DNA of 6,926 nucleotides from Escherichia coli (lineage in GTDB: Bacteria > Pseudomonadota > Gammaproteobacteria > Enterobacterales > Enterobacteriaceae): the NCBI RefSeq assembly GCF_003334385.1, contig NZ_QOWN01000075.1. One strand, written 5' to 3'. Positions within the stretch are counted from its first letter, which is position 1. Every line of letters starts with the position of its first letter. Of the stretch, positions 1,198-3,491 are shown piece after piece. Position numbers and translations under genes: made by a program. The notes below the pieces were generated by a model. That model had not been told where the DNA came from. It made no database searches and worked only from the letters and a program-made list of their open reading frames with translations.

Positions 1198-1527
1198 ATG
1201 TCAAAACCCCGATGGACCATTGAACAGAAAAGGCAGCACGTTGCTGCCTGGCGCGCCAGTGGTCTTACACGTCAGCAATACTGTGAACTCAACGATATTC
1301 CCTTCACATCACTTCGCGAATGGCCGCAGGATGTCGCAAAAGCTGAACGCCGGGCAAATGAACCGACCGTTCTTCCCATTCATATTGCGCCACCACTGCA
1401 TGCTGATGTACCACAGCCCGTCACGAATGAGCCAGTCACGCTCTTCCTTCCCGGTGGAGTACGGATGTGCTGTCAGCCGTCACAACTTACCGATGTCTTC
1501 AGGGCACTCAAATATGCTCAGTCCTGA
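1198..1527 (+). CDS. tnpA: IS66-family accessory protein TnpA (orf1, small helix-turn-helix protein)
   Basis: 109-aa ORF with GGAG at 1187-1190 seven nt upstream of ATG 1198. Its stop (TGA 1525-1527) overlaps the start of the next ORF (ATG 1514), the usual IS66 orf1/orf2 coupling. N-terminal W..E.K...V..W...G motif is typical of IS66 Orf1 / IS3-type HTH proteins. Confidence 0.8.
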   Translation: MSKPRWTIEQKRQHVAAWRASGLTRQQYCELNDIPFTSLREWPQDVAKAERRANEPTVLPIHIAPPLHADVPQPVTNEPVTLFLPGGVRMCCQPSQLTDVFRALKYAQS

Positions 1528-1893
1528 TAATGTCTTCATCGCAATTAAACCTGTTGACATGCGCCGGGGCATCGACTCACTGACGCAGTATATACATCGA
1601 CATGGCATGAGGGAGCCGCCTTCGTCTTTGTTAACAAAGCCCGTTCGCGTATCAAAGTTCTCCGGTGGGATAAACACGGGGTGTGGTTGTGTACCCGCCG
1701 TCTGCACAAAGGCAGCTTCCGCTGGCCACGTGCAAATGACGCTGCCTGGCACCTCACTCCCGACGAGTTTAACTGGCTGATTGCCGGTGTTGACTGGCAG
1801 CAGGTTAAGGGACATGACCTGACGAAATGGGTCTGGCAGAATGAACCTGAACTGCGCCCTGAAAACACGCAAAATACACTGCTAACTCAGTGA
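1514..1893 (+). pseudogene. tnpB: IS66-family TnpB (orf2), disrupted by an apparent single-base deletion (-1 frame change) near 1595-1605
   Basis: N-terminal part (MLSPDNVFIAIKPVDMRRGIDSLTQYI, with the conserved VDMR motif) is in the frame of ATG 1514. The conserved C-terminal part (EGAAFVFVNKARSRIKVLRWDKHGVWLCTRRLHKGSFRWP...) is in the -1 frame, ending at TGA 1891-1893. That downstream frame has no start codon of its own before 1681. Confidence 0.7.
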
Positions 1894-1899
1894 AAAATA

Positions 1900-3491
1900 A
1901 TGAATATCCGTATCTGGAGTGGTATACTCCCCTGTATGGATATCTCCGCTCTCAACACCACGAATGACATCGAAAAACTGCGTGCTATGGCACTTGCCAT
2001 GGTACAAGAAGTCATGTCGGAGAATGCCGAAAAAGAGCGGGAATTACTGGAGAAAAGCCGGCGCATCCAGCTTCTGGAAGAAATGCTGAAACTGGTTCGT
2101 CAACAGCGCTTCGGAAAAAAATGTGAAACGCTGGCTGGTATGCAACGCTCCCTGTTCGAAGAAGATGTTGATGCCGATATCGCCGCGCTTACCGCACATC
2201 TGGATAAACTGCTCCCGCAATCCCCTGAAGAAGACGAAAAAGCGTCCCGTTCACGCCCGATACGCAAACCCTTACCGGTTCATCTTCCACGGGTGGAAAA
2301 AATTATCCAGCCGGACACTGACCATTGCCCTGAATGTGACGAGCCGCTGCACTATATCCGCGATGCGGTGAGTGAAAAGCTGGAGTATATTCCCGCTCAC
2401 TTTGTGGTGAACCGTTATGTCCGTCCACAATACAGTTGTCCCTGTTGCCAGAAGGTGTTCAGCGGTGAAATGCCGGCACATATCCTCCCGAAAAGTGCCG
2501 TTGAGCCATCAGTCATCGCACAGGTGATCATCAATAAATACGGTGACCACCTGCCTCTGTATCGCCAGCAACAGGTCTTTGCCCGTTCAGATGTCGGGCT
2601 GCCCGTCAGTTCGATGGCTGACATGGTTGGCGCGGCGGGTGCCGCATTATCGCGTTACTCCATCGCGAGTTGATAAACCGTCCGGTGGTGCATGCAGATG
2701 AGACTACCCTGAAGATCCTGAACACGAAGAAAGGCGGTAAATCCTGCTCCGGTTATCTGTGGGCATACATCAGTGGAGAAAGGACGGGACCGTCAGTTGT
2801 GTGCTTCGACTGCCGGACCGGACGTAGCCATGAGTATCCTGAAAACTGGCTTCAGGGCTGGGGCGGGACGCTGGTTGTCGACGGACATAAAGCTTACCGG
2901 ACTCTGGCAAACAAAGTGCCGGAGATCACGCTGGCCGGATGCTGGGCCCATGCCCGCAGGGGCTTCGCCGACCTGTATAAAATCAGTAAAGATCCACGGG
3001 CTGCCATAGCCGTGAAGAAAATCGCGGGGTTGTACCGTCTTGAGAAGAAGATCAGTAGCCGCCCCGTGGAAAAAATCCGCCAGTGGCGACAGCGTTATGC
3101 CCGTCCGATACTGGAAGAACTGTGGTCATGGCTTGAAGAGCAGGAACCGCAATGTTCTCCGGGAAGGGCATTACACAAAGCCATTGCCTATGCGCTGTCT
3201 CATCGCGTGGAACTGAGCCGCTTCCTGGAAGATGGTGCGGTGCCGCTGGATAATAATGTGTGTGAACGGGCCATCAAAAACGTGGTTCTGGGCAGAAAAT
3301 CGTGGCTGTTCGCCGGTTCGCAGATGGCGGGAGAACGCGCCGCGCAAATAATGTGCTTGCTGGAAACCGCGAAACGCAACGGTCTGGAGCCGCATGCCTG
3401 GTTGACAGACGTCCTGATGCGTCTGCCGGAGTGGCCGGAGGAGCGACTGGCAGAGTTGCTGCCTCTTGAGGGATTTACCTTCTCCGGGTGA
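1900..3491 (+). pseudogene. tnpC: IS66-family transposase TnpC (orf3), split by a -1 frame change near 2648-2656
   Basis: Upstream part (1900-2673) carries a leucine-zipper-like N-terminus and a CxxC...CxxC zinc ribbon (HCPECDEP...CPCCQKV). Downstream part (frame of 2670-3491) carries VHADETTLKIL, CWAHARR and DNNVCERAIK...GRKSWLF motifs. Joined with one extra base it would encode about 530 aa. An alternative start is ATG 1936. Confidence 0.8.

Follow-up and report, generated by a model that had tools for sequence, protein, structure and literature searches.

IS66 and IS679, the founding and best-studied elements of the IS66 family, carry three genes in the order tnpA-tnpB-tnpC, encode a DDE transposase whose N-terminal region contains a leucine zipper and a zinc finger, and are flanked by an 8-bp target-site duplication (TSD). 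The family traits used for the comparison follow in part PMC6778807. The window, that is, the whole 6,926-nucleotide stretch of Escherichia coli DNA that was analyzed, contains an element that shares these traits and whose right inverted repeat (IRR) likewise begins GTAAGC. Unlike IS66 and IS679, it is divergent in sequence, constituting a different element, and the copy in the window is non-autonomous. The intact ISEc49 copies of CFT073 and ATCC 25922 lie at the same agn43-yeeR site with the same TSD, GCATTAAC, and the same inverted repeats; gene order and the overlap of tnpA with tnpB are also shared, and nucleotide identity to the window is 98.8% over positions 1020-3620. Relative to the CFT073 copy, 13 bp of tnpB and 10 bp of tnpC are absent in the window, and 8 single bases within the IS differ. 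The element is best described, with high confidence, as a decaying, non-autonomous copy of ISEc49 (IS66 family) in which two deletions broke tnpB and tnpC.

Read from left to right, the window comprises the 3' end of agn43 (flu), with its stop at 1019, the IS66-family element, the start of yeeR, and an IS21-family element in yeeR. The IS66-family element occupies 1111-3853 and measures 2,743 bp in the window and 2,766 bp when intact. Its parts and the flanking duplication are as follows.

1103-1110, plus strand: left copy of the 8-bp TSD, GCATTAAC; an identical 8-mer lies at 3854-3861.
1111-1137, plus strand: left inverted repeat (IRL), GTGTCGTTACGGGGAAGTCATCTTCAC; pairs with the reverse complement of 3827-3853.
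1198-1527, plus strand: tnpA, intact, 109 aa; open reading frame matching NF047593 (IS66 TnpA).
1514-1596, plus strand: 5' part of tnpB, codons 1-27 and 2 bases, in the frame of ATG 1514; matches NF033819.
1596-1597, plus strand: junction of the 13-bp tnpB deletion, GGATGAACTCCGG absent; from alignment to CFT073.
1597-1893, plus strand: 3' part of tnpB, in the −1 frame relative to the 5' part; matches NF033819.
1936-2651, plus strand: 5' part of tnpC, residues 1-238, with the leucine zipper, the zinc finger, and the first ~50 residues of DDE_Tnp_IS66.
2651-2652, plus strand: junction of the 10-bp tnpC deletion, TCCCCTGGCG absent; from alignment to CFT073 and NMBU-W12E19.
2652-3491, plus strand: 3' part of tnpC, in the −1 frame, with the remaining DDE domain, including the HADET motif, and the IS66 C-terminal element.
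3492-3826, plus strand: noncoding right part of the IS; inside the IS by the empty-site test.
3827-3853, minus strand: IRR, reverse complement GTAAGCTTCCGGGGAACTCATATTGAC; right end common to CFT073.
3854-3861, plus strand: right copy of the TSD, GCATTAAC; matches the left copy.

Assignment to the IS66 family is supported by the following data. The TnpC protein, in its repaired form or from CFT073, is a DDE transposase that matched PF03050, PF13817, PF13005, and PF13007 and scored 441.6 bits against NF033517 (cutoff 180). Both tnpA and tnpB lie upstream of tnpC, the TnpB model was matched, and the element has terminal inverted repeats and an 8-bp TSD. A 99%-identical transposase, with tnpA and tnpB upstream, was named "IS66-like element ISEc49 family transposase" by RefSeq/PGAP, and the name ISEc49 is taken from that annotation. 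As judged from the sequence, the capacity for autonomous transposition is predicted to have been lost, a frame-shifting deletion being present in both tnpB and tnpC.

The ends of the element were located from its repeats, its relatives, and its empty site. IRL and IRR are 27-nt, imperfect terminal inverted repeats that open GTGTCGTTACGGGGAAGTCAT... and GTAAGCTTCCGGGGAACTCAT..., respectively. Homology to ISEc49-like copies begins exactly at 1111 in three unrelated contexts (near terW, near a GNAT gene and nanX, and near dcuC), and the right end was also found, with variation, in RM10042. The empty-site query was a 200-bp composite of both flanks with one GCATTAAC. It gave a 100% match over the 200 bp in K-12 MG1655 and was matched with at least 80% query coverage in 2,188 genomes (about 2,190), and the direct alignment with K-12 showed an 8-bp overlap at the insertion site. 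The original prediction that the ends and the TSD are intact was thereby borne out, with the IS at 1111-3853, GCATTAAC on both sides, and a single GCATTAAC at the empty site. ISEc49 is proposed to have inserted between agn43 (flu) and yeeR, in a CP4-44-type island, duplicating the target GCATTAAC; the left insertion junction at agn43 is common to 65 complete E. coli genomes. Upstream of the insertion point, 20 nt past the agn43 stop, a perfect 12-nt hairpin (GGTCCCGGTCAT A ATGACCGGGACC) was observed at 1040-1064. It is kept in K-12 and is probably the agn43 terminator.

The frame breaks were examined by aligning positions 1020-3620 of the window to CFT073, in which tnpA, tnpB, and tnpC are intact (330, 393, and 1566 bp, respectively), and to NMBU-W12E19. 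Against these two sequences, exactly two indels were found inside the IS, one of 13 bp after 1596 and one of 10 bp after 2651. The breaks had been predicted at about 1595-1605 and 2648-2656, which is right to within a few bases, the exact sites being between 1596 and 1597 and between 2651 and 2652. Alignment to intact copies, the check proposed with that prediction, located the missing 13 and 10 bp and showed the homologues to be without the two-frame arrangement. It had further been held that each gene needs a −1 frame change to be full length. The frame switches were indeed recovered, both from the open reading frame list and three-frame translation and with NCBIfam HMMs, whose matches change frame exactly at the junctions and are far beyond chance; however, a −1 shift alone gives no full-length proteins because the 13 bp and 10 bp are absent. 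Besides the frame, four codons and one base are lost from tnpB and three codons and one base from tnpC.

Of the three genes, tnpA is the intact one, with a match to NF047593 at E = 4e-13 and 49.8 bits (cutoff 28) and one substitution relative to CFT073. The 5' part of tnpB, which is the same as CFT073 up to 1596, matched profile positions 1-21 of NF033819 (E = 5e-4), and the 3' part matched positions 29-90 (E = 1e-22); the intact TnpB homologue scored 115 bits against the same model (cutoff 50). From ATG 1514 the TnpB-like reading runs ...PVDMRRGIDSLTQYI (to ...LTQYI) and then, in the −1 frame from 1597, STWHEGAAFVFVNKARSRIKVLRWDKHGVWL.... The break is at codon 28 of 130, within the conserved TnpB domain. 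When GGATGAACTCCGG was put back in silico, the resulting TnpB was 100% identical to that of CFT073. In both deletion-carrying genomes whose annotation was examined, tnpB was flagged as a pseudogene by PGAP.

For tnpC, the start at 1936 was taken from the RefSeq annotation of relatives, and an in-frame ATG lies upstream at 1900. The 5' part matched NF033517 positions 3-137 (E = 2e-39), and its frame continues past the junction to a stop, TGA, at 2671-2673; the 3' part matched positions 149-386 (E = 9e-82). The TnpC-like reading ends ...MVGAAGAAL and resumes as LLHRELINRPVVHADETTLKIL... in the −1 frame. In the intact protein the Pfam domains were assigned to residues 47-121 (LZ), 129-171 (zf), and 187-470 (DDE_Tnp_IS66), which places the break, at residue 239 of 521, inside DDE_Tnp_IS66 and just upstream of the HADET motif. 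Restoration of TCCCCTGGCG in silico gave a 521-aa TnpC with no stops and with three substitutions relative to CFT073 (G64E, V282I, and S477C, written from CFT073 to the window). With tnpC frame-broken and tnpB likewise, the view that no intact transposase can be made was upheld.

As to the origin of the breaks, a single-base loss or homopolymer error was ruled out, since the lesions are of 13 and 10 bp in nonrepetitive sequence. Inspection of the local sequence revealed no convincing microhomology flanking either deletion. In several IS families a two-part arrangement in the −1 frame has a regulatory role, and both downstream parts are here in the −1 frame relative to their upstream parts, as would be expected if programmed −1 ribosomal frameshifting or transcriptional slippage produced full-length TnpB and TnpC in the manner of IS3 or IS1 OrfAB. 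The chance of this is nevertheless considered negligible. The junctions, TATACA/TCGACA in tnpB and ATTATC/GCGTTA in tnpC, have neither a slippery heptamer nor a homopolymer, and neither hallmark of the IS3/IS1 type, a slippery site or a two-frame arrangement in functional homologues, was found. Each protein is instead encoded in one continuous frame in 99%-identical copies, with the extra bases exactly at the junctions, and the window junction is absent in 232 of 242 genomes for tnpB and in all 237 for tnpC. Even after a shift, four conserved codons of tnpB and three of tnpC would still be gone. The earlier opinion that programmed frameshifting is unlikely is in agreement with the near-identical copies (CFT073, ATCC 25922, and others), which are single-ORF with extra bases at the breaks.

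The same gaps would be seen if one or both were errors of assembly or sequencing and the genes were intact in the real genome. This would account for the 10-bp tnpC deletion being found in 0 of 237 complete RefSeq E. coli genomes and would be in keeping with the private 4-bp loss that the window shows in a short CTGG-type repeat at 4078. Against it, 10 complete genomes that were sequenced independently also carry the 13-bp deletion, and neither site falls in the type of homopolymer or tandem repeat from which sequencing platforms lose 10 to 13 bases. Furthermore, both deletions recur in a separate Logan assembly. When the 257-aa N-terminal TnpC open reading frame with its frameshifted tail was looked up as an exact protein, contig ERR1948963_464 (2,648 bp, 7 samples) was found; it is 100% identical to window positions 1027-3674 and carries both deletions as well as the SNPs at 2163 and 3354 that are private to the window. 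In the exact-protein look-ups, the N-terminal TnpC fragment from ATG 1936 and the C-terminal fragment from TTG 2670 gave no match; only the version starting at 1900 was matched. The Logan assembly is independent and read based, and its samples may be of the same strain or lineage as the source of the window. Because this contig is identical over both deletions and because the tnpB deletion recurs in 10 genomes, a one-off assembly error is unlikely, and an artefact of any kind is judged very improbable. There is a small residual chance of a systematic artefact in both the window and Logan assemblies, possibly of one strain.

The distribution of the lesions was determined among complete E. coli genomes. 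By an asymmetric junction probe, the 13-bp tnpB deletion was found in 10 of the 242 genomes with the tnpB segment, and these are the same 10 in which the entire arrangement of the window, IS21 insertion included, is present. The 10-bp tnpC deletion was found in none of 237 complete genomes. The group of 10 (NMBU-W12E19, DETEC-S792, UPEC-245U, and others) is 99.7% identical to the window over the whole 6.9 kb and shares with it the 13-bp loss from tnpB, the IS21-family element in yeeR, and the frameshift in istA. Seven members of this group have an intact tnpC (1566 bp) and 3 have one with an 83-bp deletion, in contrast to the 10-bp deletion of the window only. Relative to its closest relatives, six differences are private to the window: four SNPs and two deletions, one of 10 bp in tnpC and one of 4 bp after 4078. 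The 83-bp deletion, at the equivalent of window positions 2188-2270, is also frame shifting and accompanies the tnpB deletion in strains G1/2, G6/7, and G8. There are thus two independent tnpC lesions on a background in which tnpB is dead, one in the window and one in these strains. The most parsimonious history, whose order we infer from this nesting, is insertion, then the tnpB deletion, and then independent tnpC lesions. In one sublineage the 13-bp deletion would have removed tnpB codons 28 to 32 and shifted the frame, and in the lineage of the window a later 10-bp deletion would have shifted the tnpC frame at residue 239, inside the DDE domain. The separate 83-bp deletion in the sister genomes would fit neutral decay after the loss of tnpB.

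Degradation of ISEc49-like copies is also frequent at other loci. The RM10042 copy has an internal stop in tnpA and a short tnpC coding sequence (876 bp versus 1566 bp when intact), in the Santai copy tnpB is partial and tnpC frameshifted, and in the PapRG-04-4 copy tnpC is frameshifted; mouse strain M19 has an apparently intact copy. The right noncoding part of ISEc49 is interrupted in CFT073 and its relatives, after the equivalent of window position 3801, by another IS66-family element (about 7305-9986 of the CFT073 locus). This second element contains a tnpA of 678 bp, a tnpB of 348 bp, and a frameshifted tnpC. Because of this insertion, ISEc49 is split in CFT073, with its genes intact.

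All three reading frames are reportedly needed for transposition in the IS66 family, a result attributed to the work of Han et al. in 2001 on IS679. A literature search on IS66-family function gave no result on a requirement for tnpA, tnpB, and tnpC. Loss of function is deduced here from the fact that tnpB and tnpC give no full-length product; with neither gene yielding one and no recoding signal, the element would be unable to transpose alone. It would then be a fixed relic that kept its terminal inverted repeats and that could be moved only by a compatible IS66-family transposase supplied in trans. Such mobilization by a cognate transposase is structurally conceivable because the inverted repeats are intact. 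No cognate helper copy is evident, since only one ISEc49 tnpB segment was found per genome in the 10 closest complete genomes. The Logan contig passes unbroken through both deletion sites, a weak indication that the genome concerned lacks a second, intact copy.

It could be argued that the truncated products were kept because they are useful, for example, that the 245-aa N-terminal TnpC fragment inhibits related IS66-family transposases by binding DNA. The LZ_Tnp_IS66 and zf-IS66 domains are whole in the N-terminal open reading frame, which lacks the catalytic core, tnpA is intact, and other IS66-family elements such as ISEc8 are frequent in E. coli genomes. The allele, however, is rare (0 of 237 complete genomes), and the sister lineage broke tnpC elsewhere, within the N-terminal part itself (83 bp, 2188-2270). 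This different lesion favors random decay over selection for one fragment, and a useful fragment is considered highly unlikely. There is a similarly slim chance that the stepwise decay resulted from selection against TnpC without TnpB or, alternatively, that the TnpC N-terminal fragment acts in trans as an inhibitor of other IS66-family elements of the host. The preferred interpretation, decay of an ISEc49 copy by two deletions, amounts to ordinary pseudogenization of an insertion sequence that is already catalogued; RefSeq annotation of this site includes both the element and the tnpB pseudogene. The one rare feature is the 10-bp tnpC deletion, which serves as a marker at the level of the strain.

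For annotation, tnpB and tnpC should be marked as pseudogenes arising from 13-bp and 10-bp deletions rather than as recoding candidates or sequencing errors; beyond annotation the finding is of little importance. To follow the lineage of this agn43 island variant, the two deletions and the IS21 insertion in yeeR are convenient markers. The nested pattern, with a shared insertion, a shared tnpB deletion, and independent tnpC deletions, provides a small, clean case of IS erosion after fixation.

The noncoding stretch from the tnpC stop to IRR is unusually long, about 360 bp. It contains an 18-nt inverted repeat (3497-3514 and 3547-3564, 94% complementary) and three 16-nt repeats with 33-bp spacing at 3631-3712. 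An Rfam scan of the whole window, including 3492-3826, gave no match. To the right of the element, the 5' remnant of yeeR (3891-4151) carries the private 4-bp deletion at 4078/4079 (GGCT/GGCA in relatives), which is absent in all close relatives. It is situated in a GCTG/CTGG tandem repeat and looks like replication slippage.

The IS21-family (ISSso4-like) element interrupts yeeR at about 4152-6789 and contains istA (about 4354-5918) and istB (5935-6690). The istB gene is intact. The frame of istA is broken in the A-run at 4741-4746, which is one A short as compared with the intact ISSso4-family istA of PapRG-04-4; this frameshift is common to all 10 closest genomes, where istA was labeled "frameshifted" by PGAP. 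Multiple short repeats of the GATC(N)nTTTGGCAT type were observed at both ends of the element, at 4160-4300 and 6715-6789. As is typical of IS21, they are probably multiple terminal binding sites for the transposase. The yeeR flanks, with GCTGG on the left and GCGG on the right, suggest an imperfect short duplication.
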